Positions 26,631 through 35,385 of a DNA stretch of 36,533 nucleotides are shown piece after piece. This DNA is from a virus. The notes beneath the pieces are model-generated. The model saw only the letters and a list, made by a program, of their open reading frames with translations. It had not been told where the DNA came from and did not search any database. The position numbers and the translations under genes are program-made. Each line of letters begins with the position of its first letter. Within the stretch, counting starts at the first letter, position 1. The stretch is from UHGV virus genome UHGV-0135234. The stretch is one strand, 5' to 3'.

Positions 26631-29105
26631 ATGAGACAGGAATGTATACAAGCGGTCCAGCAGGCGGCGCAGCGCACGTTAACGGCGCGAGAAATACAGA
26701 ACATTGAAGACCGCATTTATCGAAATATGCGCTCCATTGCTCGTGATGACCCGATGTCGTGGCGACAACTTTCCGAATCAGAACGGTTGTATCGTGCAGC
26801 ACAATTGGCATCTGAAGAATTACAGCGAGAAGCGGCATTAAAGAAACGTCGTGTGGCCCTCACTATAGCCGCACGTCAGAGATTGGATAAATTTATCAAT
26901 AGCTATCAAGGGGCTGATGGGAAACTTGGCGCTCTTAACCGTACTATTGCTTTTAATGCAGACGGTAAATCGAATTTCCTCTCTGTTGAATCCAGAACAA
27001 AAGCCACCCGTGATTATGCATTGAGTCAATTGCAGGAGGCATTCGAAGCAGTTGATCCTCGCTTTTTTGGTCTGTTTGAAGATGAAGCGGGCGTACGTGA
27101 CCTGGTATATGAAATGCGGGGGCAAAATACTGGCAATGCTAAAGCAAGAAAAGGTGCTAAGGCGTGGAGAGAAGTTACAGAGCTGCTGCGCCGCCGGTTT
27201 AATGATGCTGGTGGGGACATTGGCTATCTCGAAAACTGGGGGATCCCTCAACATCATTCTATGGAAAAGGTTGGGGCGGTATCAAAGGATAAGTGGGTTA
27301 GCGATGTTATAGGTAAGCTGGATCGCAAATATTATACCCGAGCCGATGGACAACTGATGAACGATGCCGAGTTGTCTGAATTTCTTGGAGAGGCTTATAA
27401 CACGATCGCTACTGGTGGGCTGAATAAGCTTACTGATACCGGAATGCGAATTTCCGGCGCACGTGCTAACCGTGGTAATGCATCACGACAGATACATTTC
27501 AAAGATGCAGATTCCTATCTGCAATATCAGCAACTTTATGGCGATCGCTCTCTATGGGAAATCATGGTCGGTCACCTGGAAGGTATCAGTAAAGATATTG
27601 CGCTGGTGGAAACATATGGCCCAAACCCCGATCATGTTTTCCGCTCCCTTCTTGATCAGGTTAAGGCAGAAACGGCAACAGCTAACCCGAGTAAAACCGG
27701 TAGCGTCGAGCGTCTGGCGAACAAAACAGAGAACTTGTACAACTTTATTTCCGGAAAAACACAGCCTGTAGCGAATCCGCACATCGCGCGATGGTCTGAC
27801 AATATCCGCAACTGGCTGGTTGCCAGCAGACTCGGATCCGCGTTGCTGTCATCGTTCTCTGATCTTGGAACCATGTATCTGTCTGCGAAGGTTACCAACC
27901 TTCCAATGAACCAGTTATTTCGCAACCAGCTTGAAGCTATGGACCCAACGAACCGTACAGAACTTGCGCGGGCGCGCCGCGCTGGCCTGGCGATGGAATC
28001 TCTACTTGGCAGCGTTAACCGCTGGGCGATGGATAATATGGGGCCGTCTGTGTCTCGTTGGGCGGCAACGGCGGTAATGCGTGCCAGTGGGCTTACAGCA
28101 TGGTCAGATGCGCACAAGCGCGCCTATGGCGTAACCATGATGGGAAGCCTGGGAGAAGTAGTGTCACGGACACCAGACCTTCGTAGCCTCGATGACTCTG
28201 ATTTTCGTATCCTGAAAAGCAAAGGGATTACTGACACAGACTGGAGCGTATGGAAGCTGGCGCAACAGGAGGACTGGGGGAACGGTAATAATACGATGCT
28301 GACACCGGAAAGCATTATGCGTATCCCTGATTCAGCAGTTAAACATCTTGGTGAGCCTGAACGCGTGAAATTTGAGGCAATGCGTAAACTGCTCGGTGCC
28401 GTAACTGAAGAAGTTGATATGGCTGTTATTACACCGGGCGCACGTGAACAGATGTTCGTAGGGTCTGGTCTTCAGCGTGGAACATGGAAAGGTGAATTAA
28501 CGAGAAGTGTTTTCCTGTTTAAATCGTTCCCTATCTCGGTAGTTATGCGTCACTGGCATAGAGCTATGGGGATGCCGTCTGCTGGTGGGCGTGCGGCATA
28601 TATAGCAACGTTTTTAGCAAGCACAACCATGCTTGGTGCTCTTTCCATGCAGATTACTGATCTTATTAATGGGAGAAATCCAAAAGAAATGACCGGTGAC
28701 AACATGGTTAAATTCTGGATAAATGCATTTTTAAAAGGTGGTGGGGCAGGGTTGTATGGTGATTTTCTTTTCTCTGACCACACCAGGTACGGGAGCGGCG
28801 CACTAGCGTCGATGCTTGGCCCGGTAGCTGGTCTGGTTGATGACGTAGTGAAGATTGCTCAGGGCATACCGTTAAATGCTGTGGAAGGGAAGAATGAGCA
28901 GACTGGTGGTGATCTGGTTAAGCTTGGGAAAGGTTTGATGCCTGGTGCGAATCTCTGGTACTTGAAGGCGGCTCTCGATCACATGATCTTTAATCAGATG
29001 CAGGAGTATTTTTCACCAGGCTATTTGCGTAAAATGGAGCAACGTTCGAAGAAAGAGTTTAACCAGACATACTGGTGGCGACCTCAGGATGTCACTCCGC
29101 AATAA
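26631..29105 (+). CDS. large internal virion/ejection protein
   Basis: 824 aa; last large protein of virion block. Confidence 0.65.
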   Translation: MRQECIQAVQQAAQRTLTAREIQNIEDRIYRNMRSIARDDPMSWRQLSESERLYRAAQLASEELQREAALKKRRVALTIAARQRLDKFINSYQGADGKLGALNRTIAFNADGKSNFLSVESRTKATRDYALSQLQEAFEAVDPRFFGLFEDEAGVRDLVYEMRGQNTGNAKARKGAKAWREVTELLRRRFNDAGGDIGYLENWGIPQHHSMEKVGAVSKDKWVSDVIGKLDRKYYTRADGQLMNDAELSEFLGEAYNTIATGGLNKLTDTGMRISGARANRGNASRQIHFKDADSYLQYQQLYGDRSLWEIMVGHLEGISKDIALVETYGPNPDHVFRSLLDQVKAETATANPSKTGSVERLANKTENLYNFISGKTQPVANPHIARWSDNIRNWLVASRLGSALLSSFSDLGTMYLSAKVTNLPMNQLFRNQLEAMDPTNRTELARARRAGLAMESLLGSVNRWAMDNMGPSVSRWAATAVMRASGLTAWSDAHKRAYGVTMMGSLGEVVSRTPDLRSLDDSDFRILKSKGITDTDWSVWKLAQQEDWGNGNNTMLTPESIMRIPDSAVKHLGEPERVKFEAMRKLLGAVTEEVDMAVITPGAREQMFVGSGLQRGTWKGELTRSVFLFKSFPISVVMRHWHRAMGMPSAGGRAAYIATFLASTTMLGALSMQITDLINGRNPKEMTGDNMVKFWINAFLKGGGAGLYGDFLFSDHTRYGSGALASMLGPVAGLVDDVVKIAQGIPLNAVEGKNEQTGGDLVKLGKGLMPGANLWYLKAALDHMIFNQMQEYFSPGYLRKMEQRSKKEFNQTYWWRPQDVTPQ

Positions 29106-29114
29106 GGAACAACA

Positions 29115-29528
29115 ATGAAGGAATTATTGCTGTTATCGGTATTTTTGATATCCGCTTGCTCGACATCCTATGATGTTTATGACGGTGTTGATAAGGCATA
29201 TTGCGACAAAGTTAAAATGGATTTTTCTCTTGCCAAGACGGCGAAGGATAGTTGTATTGATCACTACGTCAAGACTTATACCAAGCCAGCCTCATCGGCA
29301 TCTGATATTGCTGAAGGTGCTGTGTTTGAGTGTAACAAGGTGATATCCATCGCAGCGAGTTCTTCATACGATGCTGCTGTATGTGCAATGGCTGAAAGAA
29401 ACGGCATGTCAGTGCAAAAAATTAATAGCATGATAAGCAGTAATGACGAAGCCAAAATAAGAACTGATATCAGCTCGGTGAAAAAAGATGCCATGAACAG
29501 AGTTGTAAAATATCAGTCATCTTTATAA
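29115..29528 (+). CDS. lipoprotein (candidate superinfection-exclusion moron)
   Basis: 137 aa; signal peptide MKELLLLSVFLISAC with lipobox ISAC, Ser at +2; AT-rich; followed by palindrome and terminator. Confidence 0.6.
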   Translation: MKELLLLSVFLISACSTSYDVYDGVDKAYCDKVKMDFSLAKTAKDSCIDHYVKTYTKPASSASDIAEGAVFECNKVISIAASSSYDAAVCAMAERNGMSVQKINSMISSNDEAKIRTDISSVKKDAMNRVVKYQSSL

Positions 29529-29531
29529 GTC

Positions 29532-29543
29532 GTGACATGTCAC
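29532..29543. repeat. 12-bp palindrome GTGACATGTCAC (copy 2)
   Basis: Identical to 12021..12032; abuts terminator 29545..29568. Confidence 0.6.
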
Positions 29544-29544
29544 A

Positions 29545-29568
29545 GGCCGCTTTCGCGGCCTTGTTTTT
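29545..29568 (+). terminator. rho-independent terminator
   Basis: ggccgc-tttc-gcggcc followed by TTGTTTTT. Confidence 0.65.
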
Positions 29569-29728
29569 AACGAATGCCACCGCCACCCGGGCGGGAATCC
29601 GCAGAACGCCCACCGCAGCGGGAGCCGTCAGCAGCAGTGTCGCTGTCGTGCTGACAACGACCGGCAAAGGCCTGAGTTGAAGCTACCAGAGACAACAAAA
29701 CGAACAGTGCAGCAAATGCTTTTTTCAT
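29567..29728 (-). CDS. small secreted peptide (Sec signal peptide, 2 Cys, Gly-rich C-terminus)
   Basis: ORF 29567..29800; ATG at 29728 gives 53 aa MKKAFAALFVLLSLVASTQAFA|GRCQHDSDTAADGSRCGGRSADSRPGGGGIR; weak SD. Confidence 0.35.
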   Translation of the reverse strand: MKKAFAALFVLLSLVASTQAFAGRCQHDSDTAADGSRCGGRSADSRPGGGGIR

Positions 29729-29800
29729 TGTGAAATTTCCATCTATAAGCCACCTCAATGTGGCGTCAATGAGTGTAGCACTGACTTTTGTTTCGCCCAC

Positions 29801-29821
29801 AAAAAAGCCCGCAGCGCGGGC
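29801..29821 (-). terminator. rho-independent terminator after cargo gene B
   Basis: Minus strand gcccgc-gct-gcgggc followed by TTTTTT. Confidence 0.6.
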
Positions 29822-30261
29822 TATTCTTCTTCATCATTAAAAAGCGGATTGTTGTTTCCATCTGATGAAAGGAAAGGTATGTGTTCTCTTGAAAATCCAA
29901 CAATGACAATTTCATTATCATTTTTTGCATAATGAATGCATTCATTAGAATGCCTTCCGCCAGGGTTGAAATTTAAGTTAATGGTATAATTCTTAAATGT
30001 GTTTGGATACCATGTTGGCCCACAATGATAATGCCAATAATTCTCTTGCTCATAATTGTCTGAGCCGGGAATTTTATCATGGTTATCATCAACCCACGAG
30101 GGCTTGTTTTTTCCAACAAGCGCCCTTCCATTGGCAACATCCTCTAAAAAACTTTGTATGATTTTTATTTCATCATCAGTAAGGAAAGGTCCGTCTACAG
30201 CGAAAGGGGTGTTGCTTTCCCCATGTAGAAAACTATTAGATATTCTAATGTTAAACTTCAA
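29821..30261 (-). CDS. AT-rich cargo protein of unknown function (gene B)
   Basis: ORF 29821..30402 has no internal Met; CAGGAG SD + 6 nt + TTG at 30261 gives 146 aa (MKFNIRISNSFLHGESNTPFAVDGPFLTDDEIKIIQ...NYWHYHCGPTWYP...FNDEEE); upstream 47 codons of the long ORF use rare codons and overlap gene A. Start uncertain. Confidence 0.4.
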   Translation of the reverse strand: MKFNIRISNSFLHGESNTPFAVDGPFLTDDEIKIIQSFLEDVANGRALVGKNKPSWVDDNHDKIPGSDNYEQENYWHYHCGPTWYPNTFKNYTINLNFNPGGRHSNECIHYAKNDNEIVIVGFSREHIPFLSSDGNNNPLFNDEEE

Positions 30262-30281
30262 GGAAAACTCCTGATGTGCTT

Positions 30282-30449
30282 CTATTTGGAGCGAAATGCC
30301 GCCTTGAAGTCGCTGAAAGATGTTCCTGTCTGGTAAACCATATCCTTGTCGCGCTCTTTGCTTGCGCGGCCAAGCATAACTTTTCCAATGACATCCCAGC
30401 ATTGCTTGGCTTGTTCATTGTGCTGAGTACGATTTTTCAACGCTGTCAT
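30282..30449 (-). CDS. small protein (gene A), first gene of operator-controlled cargo operon
   Basis: 55 aa MTALKNRTQHNEQAKQCWDVIGKVMLGRASKERDKDMVYQTGTSFSDFKAAFRSK; AGGAGG SD 6 nt before ATG; host-like codon usage; not in ORF track (<60 aa). Confidence 0.4.
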   Translation of the reverse strand: MTALKNRTQHNEQAKQCWDVIGKVMLGRASKERDKDMVYQTGTSFSDFKAAFRSK

Positions 30450-30461
30450 ATCGCGCCTCCT

Positions 30462-30476
30462 TTACCTTTAAGGTAA
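30462..30476. promoter_or_regulatory. operator palindrome TTACC-N5-GGTAA between promoter and gene A
   Basis: ttacctttaaggtaa immediately upstream of SD. Confidence 0.55.
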
Positions 30477-30504
30477 TAGTACGCTATTCACCCACAGTCT
30501 GCAA
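30476..30504 (-). promoter_or_regulatory. putative promoter of cargo operon
   Basis: Minus strand -35 TTGCAG (30499..30504), 17 bp, -10 TACTAT (30476..30481), then operator. Confidence 0.45.
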
Positions 30505-31235: not shown

Positions 31236-31388
31236 AGTGATCACCTTTGTAGTTAGGTTAATCACCACTACCGACGCCAATCGGTTGGTGGTGAACTGTG
31301 CAGGGTTGGCGTAACCGGCTACAAAGGACCCGGCGCACCTTTCGGTGCCCCCACACAGCCCACCATAGAATAGGTGCGCTTTACACAT

Positions 31389-31408
31389 AAAAAAACCGCT
31401 TATGCGGC
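31389..31408 (-). terminator. intrinsic terminator/attenuator in Bro leader
   Basis: Minus strand gccgc-ataa-gcggu followed by seven U. Confidence 0.45.
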
Positions 31409-31501
31409 ATATGTGCCTCTGTAGTAACCCGGGACGCCAATCCCGGCACTGGATTTTGCCAGTGCCCGATTACTATGGCACAAGAGGAGTGCGATGTAAA
31501 T

Positions 31502-31516
31502 TTACCGAAAAGGTAA
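31502..31516. promoter_or_regulatory. operator palindrome TTACC-N5-GGTAA
   Basis: ttaccgaaaaggtaa directly downstream of putative Bro promoter. Confidence 0.55.
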
Positions 31517-31544
31517 TAATAAACACTCTACTTGGTAATTGCAA
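31516..31544 (-). promoter_or_regulatory. putative promoter for Bro-N gene
   Basis: Minus strand -35 TTGCAA (31539..31544), 17 bp, -10 TATTAT (31516..31521); same architecture as gene A promoter. Confidence 0.4.
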
Positions 31545-31547
31545 ACC

Positions 31548-31805
31548 TTATCTGGTTTGTTTTCGTAATTGTTCGGCACAATAGTCGAGATGTGTTTGCA
31601 GATCCCGCATAGACATCTGTGAGCTGGTGACGTAGTTAATCAGTGCAGTCAGTTCGGCAAGTGGGCCATCGACATTAAATCCATCCTTATCGAGATCCCG
31701 GAGTAATTTCATCAAGTGCGATCCCTCCACCAGTGACCTGACGCCTCCCGGCGTGTGAATCCTTTCGGTAAATCCGTCTTCCAGTGGATAGTGATACTGC
31801 TGCAT
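31548..31805 (-). CDS. small antirepressor-domain protein, paralog of Bro C-terminal domain; LexA-box controlled
   Basis: ORF 31548..31823 (TTG); ATG at 31805 gives 85 aa with GGAG SD; aligns with C-terminus of 30549..31235 protein (IH(S/T)P.GV..L.E.S.LM.LL..L..DG..V.G..AELT...RD.QTH..Y). Confidence 0.55.
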   Translation of the reverse strand: MQQYHYPLEDGFTERIHTPGGVRSLVEGSHLMKLLRDLDKDGFNVDGPLAELTALINYVTSSQMSMRDLQTHLDYCAEQLRKQTR

Positions 31806-31826
31806 CTTATCTTCTCCATGCAATAA

Positions 31827-31842
31827 CTGTATATTTATACAG
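31827..31842. promoter_or_regulatory. LexA box (SOS operator) CTGTATATTTATACAG
   Basis: Perfect CTGT-N8-ACAG with AT-rich spacer; 10 nt upstream of SD of the 85-aa gene. Confidence 0.75.
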
Positions 31843-31881
31843 TATCAAATAATTTGTTTGCTATCCAGCACGTTTTGCAAA

Positions 31882-31896
31882 TTACCCGAAAGGTAA
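31882..31896. promoter_or_regulatory. operator palindrome TTACC-N5-GGTAA
   Basis: ttacccgaaaggtaa between 85-aa gene and divergent tailspike. Confidence 0.55.
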
Positions 31897-32000
31897 TATC
31901 TATTCGTATTTACAGTCTTTCTATCCATATGTGGTTTTTCAGGTAATAGAATAACCAGATATGCGGCGCAACGGGTGCTGCGACTATCTGGAGATTTAAC

Positions 32001-34190
32001 ATGACGGTCTCAACCGAAGTTGACCACAACGAATACACCGGTAACGGCGTTACGACATCATTTCCGTATACCTTCCGTATTTTCAAAAAAACCGACCTGG
32101 TTGTTCAGGTGTCTGACCTGAACGGGAACGTAACAGAATTGGTTCTGGATACCGGTTATAAGGTAACTGGAGCGGGCACTTATAGTGGCGGTGAAGTGGT
32201 TCTCCCGTCGCCGCTTGCTGCTGGCTGGCGAATTACGATAGAGCGTGTGCTTGATGTGGTGCAGGAGACTGATCTTCGCAATCAGGGAAAATTTTTCCCC
32301 GAAGTTCATGAAGATGCATTTGACTACCTGACGATGCTGATCCAGCGATGTTTTGGGTGGTTCAGACGTGCATTGATGAAACCATCTTTGCTTGCAAAAT
32401 ATTACGATGCAAAGCAAAACAAAATTTCTAACCTTGCAGATCCATCATTTGAGCAGGACGCTGTAAATAATCGCTCAATGCGTAATTATGTCGATGCTGC
32501 AATCGCCGGGGTTGTTGGTGGTTTTGGTTGGTTTATACCGTCAGGAAGCGGGGCAAGACAACGAACATTTCAAAGCAAAATGAGGGATATAATTTCTCCT
32601 TGTGATTACGAAGATAATATTTTTATGATTAAGGAGTTGATATCCAAAGGCAAAAATGCCGCTGTTTTTAACTCATATTATACTTTTGTTATTACTGTTG
32701 GCGAATGGGGTGATTTCCCTACACTCAAAGATGCAATCATTGCAGCCCAGTCAATGAGACCTATGTGGGATGGTGGTAATGCTTTCTGCGAAATAAGAAT
32801 TAAGACCGGGCATATTATCAACTATCAAATTGAATTCAGTTCAGGTGTTGATTTGTCTTGGATTAAAATAACATCAGAAGACTCAGTGGTTTTCTCTGAC
32901 ACTCGTTTGTTTACTAAAATCGTTAGAACGTATTACGAATACAAGTATTTATTTTACATTTGCGATGCAGCAAAAAGTCCTGTATTTGCTATTCAGATCG
33001 AAGAAAATAGAGATGATAGCGATGTTTGTGCATTTATTGTAACTCAAAAAGCTGAACTTAATTTCTATCCGTATTCAGGTGCTCGAAAGTTCTACGTTGG
33101 AATTCATGGTAGTTTTGGTGCAAAAATTAGTGCATATCATACCGGATGTGCTCCTGATGAGGAAAGTGTTGCTGCATATATGCCAGAAGGGTATTACGTA
33201 TGTGATTTTTCTTATAGCAGATACTCTTCCCTGCAACTGGTAAATAATGTCAAGGCATCAATGCCTGTAAGCAAGTTTGAACGGTGCACAGAGAGTACGG
33301 TTGCGTCAGTTAATTGTATTTATAATGTTAAAGCAGATTTTCAGGGGTCAAGTGCAAGCTATTGTTATATAGGATGGAATGTAAGAGATGGTTCAAATGT
33401 TAATATACGCGACCATAAAACTATACATTGCTCATATCGTGGATTAACCTGCATTCATACAGCATATGTTGATGCAAGACGACATGACGTTGAAGAAAGT
33501 GATGCAGAAACAAGTGGTAAAGTCCTTGAACCAAATATTGAAAAAGGTTTTTATGGATGTGCACTTGGTGTGCGTATTGATGGTGCGGGTTGCGTTGATG
33601 TTGCTGGTAATGATATGCGCAATTGTGGAACAGCCGTTAATGCAGACACTGGTGCTGTTATTTCAGGAAAGGCTGTAGATATCTCAGGGGCTGAGCTGGG
33701 ATTTGATTGCCATGCAGGAGCATCTGTTAATTTTCCAAGGCTATGGGGTACAGATATAAAAAAATTAATGCACCTCCAAGATGGTGTAAGGTTTAACTCT
33801 AATATTTGTCATGTATTTGGTGCAAATCCCACAAAAGATATTAGATGGATTGATGTAGAGAGATCTGAAGCTTCTTTTATGAATGCAACGCTGGATGCAG
33901 ATTCAGGATTTATTGCCGACTGTGGTAGTAGGATAACCATTGAAGGAAGTAAAGTTAAAAACCAAACAATAAGAAGTTTTTTTGGATCATATGTGGCTAT
34001 AAATAATACTGTTGCTGACAGAACTTATTCAGATATAGCCGATGTTCCGCAGTTGACTATTAGTGGAGGATCTTTTATTTCTGCTACAGGATATTCTAAT
34101 TCTGACTCCAGCCCTCTGAGGTTGAGCACAACACGAAATACACTTGGCGTTGGAGGAGCCATATTTTCAACCAATGGGGAAGTTTCATGA
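32001..34190 (+). CDS. tailspike/tail fiber with T7 gp17-like N-terminal adaptor and AT-rich C-terminal receptor-binding domain
   Basis: 729 aa; N-terminal about 130 aa matches podovirus tail-fibre N-domain pattern; composition becomes AT-rich from about 32450. Confidence 0.8.
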   Translation: MTVSTEVDHNEYTGNGVTTSFPYTFRIFKKTDLVVQVSDLNGNVTELVLDTGYKVTGAGTYSGGEVVLPSPLAAGWRITIERVLDVVQETDLRNQGKFFPEVHEDAFDYLTMLIQRCFGWFRRALMKPSLLAKYYDAKQNKISNLADPSFEQDAVNNRSMRNYVDAAIAGVVGGFGWFIPSGSGARQRTFQSKMRDIISPCDYEDNIFMIKELISKGKNAAVFNSYYTFVITVGEWGDFPTLKDAIIAAQSMRPMWDGGNAFCEIRIKTGHIINYQIEFSSGVDLSWIKITSEDSVVFSDTRLFTKIVRTYYEYKYLFYICDAAKSPVFAIQIEENRDDSDVCAFIVTQKAELNFYPYSGARKFYVGIHGSFGAKISAYHTGCAPDEESVAAYMPEGYYVCDFSYSRYSSLQLVNNVKASMPVSKFERCTESTVASVNCIYNVKADFQGSSASYCYIGWNVRDGSNVNIRDHKTIHCSYRGLTCIHTAYVDARRHDVEESDAETSGKVLEPNIEKGFYGCALGVRIDGAGCVDVAGNDMRNCGTAVNADTGAVISGKAVDISGAELGFDCHAGASVNFPRLWGTDIKKLMHLQDGVRFNSNICHVFGANPTKDIRWIDVERSEASFMNATLDADSGFIADCGSRITIEGSKVKNQTIRSFFGSYVAINNTVADRTYSDIADVPQLTISGGSFISATGYSNSDSSPLRLSTTRNTLGVGGAIFSTNGEVS

Positions 34191-34483
34191 TTAAGAGCAT
34201 TGATGTCACTCCATTTCTTCACTCGCTTTGCGCTTTTGTGGCTCAGGTACTGGTTGGTATTTTTACCGGAAACTGGGCTTACGGTGCGATAGCCGGTTGT
34301 ACGTTCTTCATTGCGCGTGAACACACCCAGGCAGAATATCGCTGGATAGAAAAGTTTGGGAAAGGGAAACGTATCAACATGCCGTGGTGGGGAGGTTTTG
34401 ATCCACGCGTGTGGGATGTGGGAAGTCTGTTGGATTTTGCTGTTCCTGTTGTTTTTTGTTTTTGTGTTTATTTCTCTATTTGA
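34187..34483 (+). CDS. small membrane protein (2 predicted TM segments)
   Basis: 98 aa; ATGA-coupled to tailspike stop; hydrophobic segments near both ends. Confidence 0.45.
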   Translation: MIKSIDVTPFLHSLCAFVAQVLVGIFTGNWAYGAIAGCTFFIAREHTQAEYRWIEKFGKGKRINMPWWGGFDPRVWDVGSLLDFAVPVVFCFCVYFSI

Positions 34484-34685
34484 CTGCTACCGCGCCATTA
34501 AATGGTGCGGTATTCAACCTGCTCTTCACTGTTTGTTTCTTCAGAGTCATGTAAAAGGTGAGCTTTATTCTCGGCATGAAAAACAGGGAATTGACGATGT
34601 TAAAGTAACAAAAAACCATAAATGGTTTATTATGCGTAATGCTTTACTGTTCAGGAGGTTGTTATGCATATAAACGGTGGAAAAC

Positions 34686-35090
34686 ATGTCAGCTCAACTA
34701 ACCAGTGAAACTTTAAATCAGTGGCTTAGCATGAGTTCTCTGGCGGCGGTGATAGCAGGAGTTCCTCCTGAGGTTGCTTTGGGTGCTTTGGCTGGAGCGG
34801 TAATTTTTGTTACCTCTGCAGTAGAGTACCCCATCCGTCGCCGGGTGCTCCTGTCGATGCTCAGCTTTCTTTGCGGCCTTCTCTTTTACAAACCAGCAGC
34901 ATCAATTCTTATCGGCATAGCCAGCCTGATCCCTACCATCACGCAGGACTCTTTTGAAAAAGGGATTGTTTTCTCTGCAGGCGCATTCGTGTCAGCAATT
35001 GTCGCTGTGCGTATTGGTATATGGCTCTATCACCGTTCCGATAATCCACGCGAGTTAATTCCGGGGAGAAAAGACGATGGTAACGCATGA
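34686..35090 (+). CDS. holin-like membrane protein
   Basis: ORF 34677..35090 (GTG); ATG at 34686 with GGTGG SD; 3-4 predicted TM segments. Confidence 0.5.
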   Translation: MSAQLTSETLNQWLSMSSLAAVIAGVPPEVALGALAGAVIFVTSAVEYPIRRRVLLSMLSFLCGLLFYKPAASILIGIASLIPTITQDSFEKGIVFSAGAFVSAIVAVRIGIWLYHRSDNPRELIPGRKDDGNA

Positions 35091-35385
35091 GTTTTTTTTG
35101 CTTATCACCAATGCAGTTATTTGCACTGGCATAGCAATTCGCGTTGTCACATTCCGGCGTAACGGCTCTCAACACCGAAGGTGGGGAGGATGGCTTGCTT
35201 ATTTCCTGATTGTTGCTGCGGCCAGTATTCCTGTTCGTGTCGCCTATGCAATCTGGTTACGTACGCCAATGGCTGTGGATTTATCTGAGGTCATTATCAA
35301 CGCTGTCATGCTAGCTGCGGTTATTAAAACGCGCGGTAACGTCGTTCAAATTTTCAAAGTATCGAGGTCTAAACATGGAGATTAA
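35077..35385 (+). CDS. holin/antiholin-like membrane protein
   Basis: 102 aa, about 3 TM segments; overlaps neighbours; directly precedes endolysin. Confidence 0.5.

Follow-up and report, generated by a model that had tools for sequence, protein, structure and literature searches.

A mosaic tailspike with a predicted beta-helix receptor-binding module in an epsilon15-type prophage of Escherichia coli

Organization of the tailspike locus

The virus genome UHGV-0135234, a stretch of 36,533 nucleotides analysed here as a whole and referred to as the window, carries a gene at 32001..34190 that a reading made from the sequence only had called a tailspike with a conserved N-terminal adaptor and a horizontally swapped C-terminal region. 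The gene is an intact open reading frame (ORF) on the plus strand, as are all features described below unless noted, with an ATG start and 729 codons for amino acids, and its product matches phrog_5662 (“tail fiber protein”) over its full length, in agreement with that call. A protein of phage HEMP4 is 99.5% identical to it. As a whole the window is an epsilon15/phiV10-type prophage (genus Uetakevirus), with 24.5 kb mostly 96–97.5% identical in DNA to HEMP4, phiv142-3 and phiV10, and the E. coli MS 198-1 chromosome matches the tailspike region at 100%. Synteny with these phages puts the tailspike in the Uetakevirus position, flanked by the antirepressor region and the lysis cassette, where it is the first gene of a rightward block of tailspike, small ORF, holins, endolysin and spanin. 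Genes around the tailspike were identified with Pfam and PHROGs.

The first 179 residues (32001..32536) form the predicted particle-binding anchor and belong to the Uetakevirus backbone. Residues 1–165 are 65–70% identical to epsilon15 gp20 and phiV10 gp25, and residues 1–203 are 91–93% identical to the tailspikes of ZX5, EC.W1-9 and phiv142-3. When the DNA is compared with phiv142-3 and ZX5 in 60-nucleotide segments, identity is 87–100% up to nucleotide 540 of the gene and at most 55% thereafter. More than 20 PHROG families match residues 1–166 or 1–203 only, and the same anchor is followed by unrelated C-termini in ZX5, phiv142-3, phiV10, epsilon15 and others. A PDB sequence search gave the Klebsiella phage depolymerases Dpo31/Dpo36 (PDB 28lx and 8ck1, E 2e-31) as the sole match, which is confined to the anchor and pairs residues 1–202 with domain 1 of those enzymes.

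The sequence-only reading was right that a conserved adaptor is present, but not about its length or about its membership of the T7-tail Pfam family. By homology the anchor ends at residue ~180–200, and the earlier figure of ~130 residues is where the composition changes, not where the domain stops. PF03906 (Phage_T7_tail) scores 11.1 bits against a gathering threshold of 25.2 bits (E 0.33), and this sub-threshold alignment covers residues 135–161 only, a likeness of role rather than a demonstrated membership. As PF03906 falls below threshold, we label the predicted anchor epsilon15-type. The P22 head-binding domain PF09008 was not found in this tailspike by Pfam, and the anchor is not of the P22 type.

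The anchor is followed by a linker at residues 180–203 (IPSGSGARQRTFQSKMRDIISPCDY; 32537..32609), where identity to the backbone ends and the receptor-binding module begins. DNA identity to phiv142-3 and ZX5 falls away abruptly at 32536/32537, and this break is the first of three junctions that sequence alignments map in the tailspike region, the others being at ~32850 and within 34263–34426. The linker, which ends in RQRTFQSKMRDIISPCDY, resembles phiv142-3/ZX5 in its first half and the module of the P22-like phage JEP4 in its second. It has the conserved pattern R-T-x-Q-x-K ... S/T-P-x-D-F/Y, and R188, K193, D202 and Y/F203 are kept in 92% or more of the 24 module homologues regardless of the N-terminus. 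A similar motif, RTFQDKMRDxIS.xDFGA, stands ahead of unrelated receptor-binding domains in phiv142-3 and ZX5.

The module itself consists of an alpha/beta cap and a beta-helix body. The cap (residues ~204–283, 32610..32849) is a lineage-specific version, 40–56% identical in amino acids to JEP4 and the 130-kb phage 92CQ and at most 53% identical to any of 23 homologue clusters, and it is AT-rich, with a G+C content at third codon positions (GC3) of ~0.3. The body (residues ~284–729, 32850..34187) is the part that has been shared recently with JEP4 and 92CQ. The second junction lies near 32850, inside the invariant block DLSWIKITSEDSVV, beyond which identity to JEP4 and 92CQ rises to ~98–100%.

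Sequence searches place the C-terminal module in no catalytic family: it has no match in Pfam, even at E<=1, or in NCBIfam, the tailspike sequence does not belong to the curated beta-helix families PF13229 and PF12708, and Pfam finds no SGNH hydrolase domain in it. With residues 171–729 as the query, 5.8 billion proteins yielded 24 clusters only. A profile search across 1.84 billion representatives gave 12 close clusters (E<1e-220) together with more distant beta-helix proteins, of which three exceed the threshold for PF13229 (Beta_helix); this profile included anchor columns and gave many anchor-only matches, so only matches covering the module were used. The module family is small, with neither a Pfam model nor a solved structure, and two of the homologues (P0015 and P0017) carry an additional SGNH domain.

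The AlphaFold2 monomer model, built on the 24-sequence alignment, has a mean predicted local distance difference test score (pLDDT) of 93.3 and a predicted template modelling score (pTM) of 0.89. It shows the short cap, made of helices and short strands, followed by a long and regular right-handed parallel beta-helix, as the sequence-only reading had proposed when it suggested a pectate-lyase-like beta-helix, while the SGNH domain it had offered beside this is not found in the protein. The best PDB match to the model in Foldseek is 8egr_A (E 9e-14), the receptor-binding protein gp15 of phage Andhra. Among the 24 homologues conservation is highest over residues 260–560, where D284, D294, E335, R337, R362, K363, D402, R462, D463, R470, H486, R493, D538 and R540 are invariant, and lowest over residues 590–729. 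This pattern would fit a conserved catalytic or binding centre at 260–560 with a variable distal end at 590–729.

Directly downstream is a small ORF of 98 codons (34187..34483), which overlaps the tailspike stop codon by 4 nucleotides and encodes a predicted membrane protein with hydrophobic ends. It matches phrog_1443 (E 3e-55), a family of unknown function, carries the UniProt name “Ybl63” and has no Pfam or NCBIfam match. In every context checked a homologue stands immediately 3' of a tail-fibre or tailspike gene, namely in lambdoid Qin in REL606, ATCC 25922, the P22-like JEP4 and NRG 857C, and the epsilon15-like phiv142-3. The third junction lies inside this ORF: in a three-way alignment the window agrees with JEP4 as far as ~34262 and with phiv142-3 from ~34427 onwards, and in between (34263–34426) the three sequences are nearly identical.

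Exchange of the module between phages

The anchor and the module are not conserved together. Just as the anchor is found with unrelated C-termini, diverged copies of the module are found behind at least six kinds of N-terminus, four of them of the types PF09008 (P22 head-binding), PF18668 (TSP1/gp66-N), PF12571 (tail-collar) and PF03906 (T7-type), the others being the ~18-residue N-terminus of the Vectrevirus VEc3 and the 69-residue N-terminus of 92CQ. The named phages that carry it are the P22-like JEP4; 92CQ, where it lies among baseplate and tail-fibre genes; VEc3 (SP6/K1-5-like), in whose second tail fibre it is 47% identical; and HEMP4, which is of the same Uetakevirus type as the window and holds the same module. 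The DNA at 32818–34446 is 97.9% identical to JEP4, and that at 32818–34203 is 97.5% identical to 92CQ. Such identity in otherwise unrelated genomes shows recent horizontal exchange of the module, in support of the swap proposed by the sequence-only reading.

A query of the tailspike plus the small ORF found matches in 1964 of the 5426 complete E. coli genomes, and in most of these only the 98-residue ORF matched, through a copy ~86% identical. The commonest sequence variant of the tailspike gene is present on 262 contigs. The module was carried by 16 of the 5426, joined to this anchor in 11 and to a P22 head-binding domain in five.

Base composition

The G+C content of the window is 0.49 and that of the tailspike gene 0.40. 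Within the gene it is far from uniform, with codons 1–130 having a G+C content of 0.485 and GC3 of 0.50, and codons 186–729 having 0.377 and 0.24, the corresponding values at first and second positions (GC1 and GC2) being 0.45 and 0.44. Since GC1 and GC2 are nearly constant along the tailspike, the shift is a synonymous one and does not stem from amino-acid content. A maximum-likelihood scan with two segments places the change point in GC3 after codon 126 (0.508 vs 0.247), and 0 of 2000 permutations were as extreme (p<=0.0005). The 1632-nucleotide stretch of lowest G+C in the window (0.376) starts at 32561, inside the gene, while stretches of this length outside the gene have a minimum of 0.429, a mean of 0.497 and a standard deviation of 0.021. 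With a GC3 of 0.29, against 0.41–0.64 in the other late genes, the tailspike is the lowest of all ORFs of at least 150 residues in the window, and its C-terminal part is indeed more AT-rich than the late genes, as had been claimed.

This AT-richness had also been taken as the signature of the swap, and here composition and transfer come apart. In the anchor, codons 1–126 have a GC3 of ~0.5, and codons 127–180 are already at 0.30. For comparison we used the tailspike loci of phiv142-3 (L003, 6000-8127), phiV10 (L004, 8000-10625) and ZX5 (L005, 2541-5658), which have a GC3 of 0.45–0.53 in the anchor and 0.22–0.38 in receptor-binding domains that are unrelated in sequence. In phiv142-3 and ZX5 the drop starts within anchor codons 127–180, as in the window, and in phiV10 it comes later, with 0.41 still found over these codons. 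We rejected composition as a marker of the junction, the change point at codon ~126 standing apart from the DNA break at codon 179/180 and the change being shared by relatives with other receptor-binding domains. As unrelated domains are AT-rich too and the drop comes ~55 codons before the junction, composition by itself neither dates nor orients the transfer.

The copies of the module in other phages are also AT-rich. The VEc3 copy has a GC3 of 0.29, and that of JEP4 has a G+C content of 0.37 and GC3 of 0.21 against a G+C content of 0.435 for the surrounding 13.6-kb locus, the JEP4 genome as a whole being at 47.05% (PMC8425383). At the 92CQ locus the G+C content is 0.373 and GC3 ranges from 0.19 to 0.38 between genes, compared with 0.377 and 0.24 for the module in the window. 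As the composition of the module is that of the 92CQ genome, it suggests that the module may have resided in AT-rich virulent phages for most of its history. AT-richness thus seems to be general to the receptor-binding domains of Uetakeviruses and long-standing in this module family.

Lysogens and the host receptor

The O-antigen loci of seven of the 16 module-carrying genomes were typed. MS 198-1 is O11, FORC_082, a carrier of the P22 type, is O5, and 118UI, ECO_1_S, ECO_2_R, EECO1006 and MSB1_7C are O15. Among the 60 O11 genomes listed (of 66) no carrier other than MS 198-1 was seen, and among all 35 O5 genomes none other than FORC_082. O15 is over-represented, with at least five of the 16 carriers compared with 100 of the 5426 genomes overall, and the five hold one and the same sequence variant and may be one clone. 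An assignment of the module as an “O11 spike” was dropped, the carriers being O11, O5 and O15 with no single serogroup among them.

In each of the three lysogens whose O-antigen locus was read in detail, the galF end carries insertion sequences: IS4 within galF in MS 198-1 (L010, 6778-9109), IS1 between galF and rfbB in FORC_082 (L014, 42762-43459), and two copies of ISAs1 between galF and wzx in 118UI (L015, 25955-28188).

These lysogens bear on whether the receptor is a serogroup-specific O-antigen or a glycan found widely in E. coli, for instance a capsule type, the lipopolysaccharide core, enterobacterial common antigen or colanic acid. We consider the second possibility less likely than not. 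It would account for the spread of the lysogens over O11, O5 and O15, and for the breadth of JEP4, whose beta-helix is ~99% identical and which lysed 32 of 67 (48%) diverse antimicrobial-resistant E. coli isolates, including 74% of phylogroup A (PMC8425383). Receptor-binding proteins of other Uetakeviruses, such as that of phiv142-3, are also reported across several serogroups, for which the K antigen has been suggested as the reason (PMC10408124). Against this, the excess of O15 could mean O15 specificity. The five carriers are probably clonal, a lysogen can still change its O-antigen locus by exchange, and the JEP4 study gives a lysis spectrum only, scored without receptor work (PMC8425383). 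Either an O-antigen bound with relaxed specificity or a glycan common across serogroups fits the data.

Interpretation

We consider it very probable that the gene encodes a single chimeric tailspike of a temperate E. coli podophage of the genus Uetakevirus, composed of a genus anchor, a linker and an exchanged beta-helix receptor-binding module. Residues 1 to ~180–200 would be the genus-specific anchor that fixes the spike, presumably a trimer, to the tail, and the short conserved linker would join it to the receptor-binding part. The cap and beta-helix (residues ~204–729) would bind, and probably cleave, a host surface polysaccharide. What the data show is the mosaic make-up, the junctions, a predicted fold and the composition, and we infer, with the sequence-only reading, that the module may be a depolymerase and that it may set host range.

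The receptor-binding family would circulate among unrelated phages through homologous recombination, with conserved flanking sequences serving as the arms. The left arm could be either the linker or the conserved block DLSWIKITSEDSVV, and the right arm the conserved small ORF directly downstream of the tailspike. Two nested recombination events of this kind are the simplest reading of the junctions. An older acquisition would have left the cap region that is now unique to this lineage, and the beta-helix body (~32850 to ~34262–34426) would have been replaced recently by an allele ~98% identical to JEP4/92CQ, a direction of transfer that we infer.

Several observations weigh against this picture. 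No member of the family has a known catalytic activity or receptor, and the best structural match, Andhra gp15, is itself without demonstrated activity (PMC9710869). Beta-helix adhesins, Vag8 and pertactin among them, likewise score well against the model. AT-richness is common to unrelated Uetakevirus receptor-binding domains and sets in ~55 codons upstream of the junction. The presence of at least three O serogroups among the lysogens, together with the breadth of JEP4 (32/67), is a misfit with a strictly serogroup-specific O-antigen spike.

The match to adhesins raises the alternative that the C-terminal beta-helix is purely an adhesin, which attaches to a surface structure but leaves it uncut in the manner of beta-helical autotransporters, and is a receptor-binding module rather than a depolymerase. 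We consider this unlikely. In the central helix ~20 polar residues (D, E, R, K and H) are invariant in homologues with identities down to 37%, a pattern more usual for active sites, and most characterised beta-helix spikes of phages are enzymes. It is very unlikely that the AT-richness arose wholly in place, through selection or mutation bias on the receptor-binding domains, for although the AT-rich unrelated domains of phiv142-3, ZX5 and phiV10, the early drop in the anchor and the low GC3 of the diverged VEc3 copy speak for such a bias, the effect lies at synonymous sites and DNA 97.5–97.9% identical amid unrelated flanks shows transfer directly, which refutes bias as the sole explanation. 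Bias in place and transfer are compatible, and both can hold together.

Going beyond the chimeric tailspike, it is conceivable, but we think doubtful, that the glycan bound by the module is not tied to one O serogroup and thereby confers an unusually broad host range, and that phrog_1443 is a portable companion of receptor-binding cassettes, acting as the recombination arm on their downstream side and perhaps with a function of its own in exclusion or envelope modification.

Neighbouring genes

Downstream of the small ORF, Pfam assigns the lysis genes as two consecutive holin-like genes at 34677-35385 (PF16931 Phage_holin_8 and PF05449 Phage_holin_3_7), followed by a GH19-type endolysin and a DUF2514 Rz-like gene. 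A scan of 31300-35200 gave promoter-like sites no more often than shuffled expectation and terminator-like sites barely more often than expected, and none of either was convincing.

Upstream, the slot at 29110-29530 holds an ORF of 137 codons (29115..29528) with a lipoprotein-type signal (…LISAC…) that matches phrog_8691, of unknown function. HEMP4 and phiv142-3 hold unrelated DNA of near-equal length in this slot, between flanks that are 98–100% identical, and the slot marks a second cassette replacement within the prophage, beside that of the tailspike. On the minus strand at 29821-30402 is an AT-rich ORF of 193 codons (G+C content 0.387, GC3 0.33) that matches phrog_5954, of unknown function, and has no Pfam match; it sits in the moron region with an injection-protein gene on one side and the antirepressor on the other. 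This region, at 29000-30500 and near the tailspike, is AT-rich as well (G+C content 0.39–0.44).

Comparison with known systems

Trading of receptor-binding modules is a well-known route by which phages change host, and the modularity of tailspikes is textbook knowledge. The receptor-binding domain of a tailspike decides which strains can be attacked by a phage or by an engineered tailocin. The module described here has moved recently among three very different phages, one of which, JEP4, is reported to lyse roughly half of the antimicrobial-resistant E. coli in a test panel. The junctions mapped here, at the linker, the DLSWIKITSEDSVV block and the small downstream ORF, offer practical cut points for domain swapping.

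The tailspike is most like phiV10 gp25 and epsilon15 gp20 in genome position, in the N-terminal ~165 residues and in the plan of an anchor followed by a variable domain. It differs from both in that sequence relationship stops at residue ~165, the C-terminal domains being unrelated, and from phiV10 also in that the slot of the 98-residue ORF is held there by an O-acetyltransferase gene. The reverse is true of the JEP4 tailspike (Lederbergvirus, QOC67869) and the 92CQ tail fibre (XVC02409). These share the body, at ~98% in DNA and 99–100% in protein from residue ~301, whereas their N-termini are unrelated (P22 head-binding in JEP4, 69 residues in 92CQ) and their caps are similar only at the 40–56% level. 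The small downstream ORF is common to the prophage and JEP4, while 92CQ has another gene in its place.

The closest fold in the PDB, Andhra gp15 (PDB 8egr), comes from a Staphylococcus phage and thus from a Gram-positive host, is 17% identical, has a coiled-coil stem instead of the epsilon15-type anchor and was not matched by the PDB sequence search. It is described as a trimeric beta-helix related to polysaccharide-degrading enzymes (PMC9710869).

This modular plan has been published for Uetake- and Lederbergviruses, with the first 205 residues of the phiV10 receptor-binding protein as the anchor and a horizontally exchanged receptor-binding domain that Lederbergviruses and lytic genera also carry (PMC10408124). 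In the text and accessible supplements of that paper the present receptor-binding subtype (JEP4, VEc3) does not appear and has no assigned serogroup. The architecture is already published, and this subtype, uncharacterised so far, belongs to a known type of modular tailspike, having in common with the published systems a conserved anchor and the transfer of receptor-binding domains among Uetake-, Lederberg-, Kutter-, Kayfuna- and other genera (Virol J 2023;20:174, PMC10408124).

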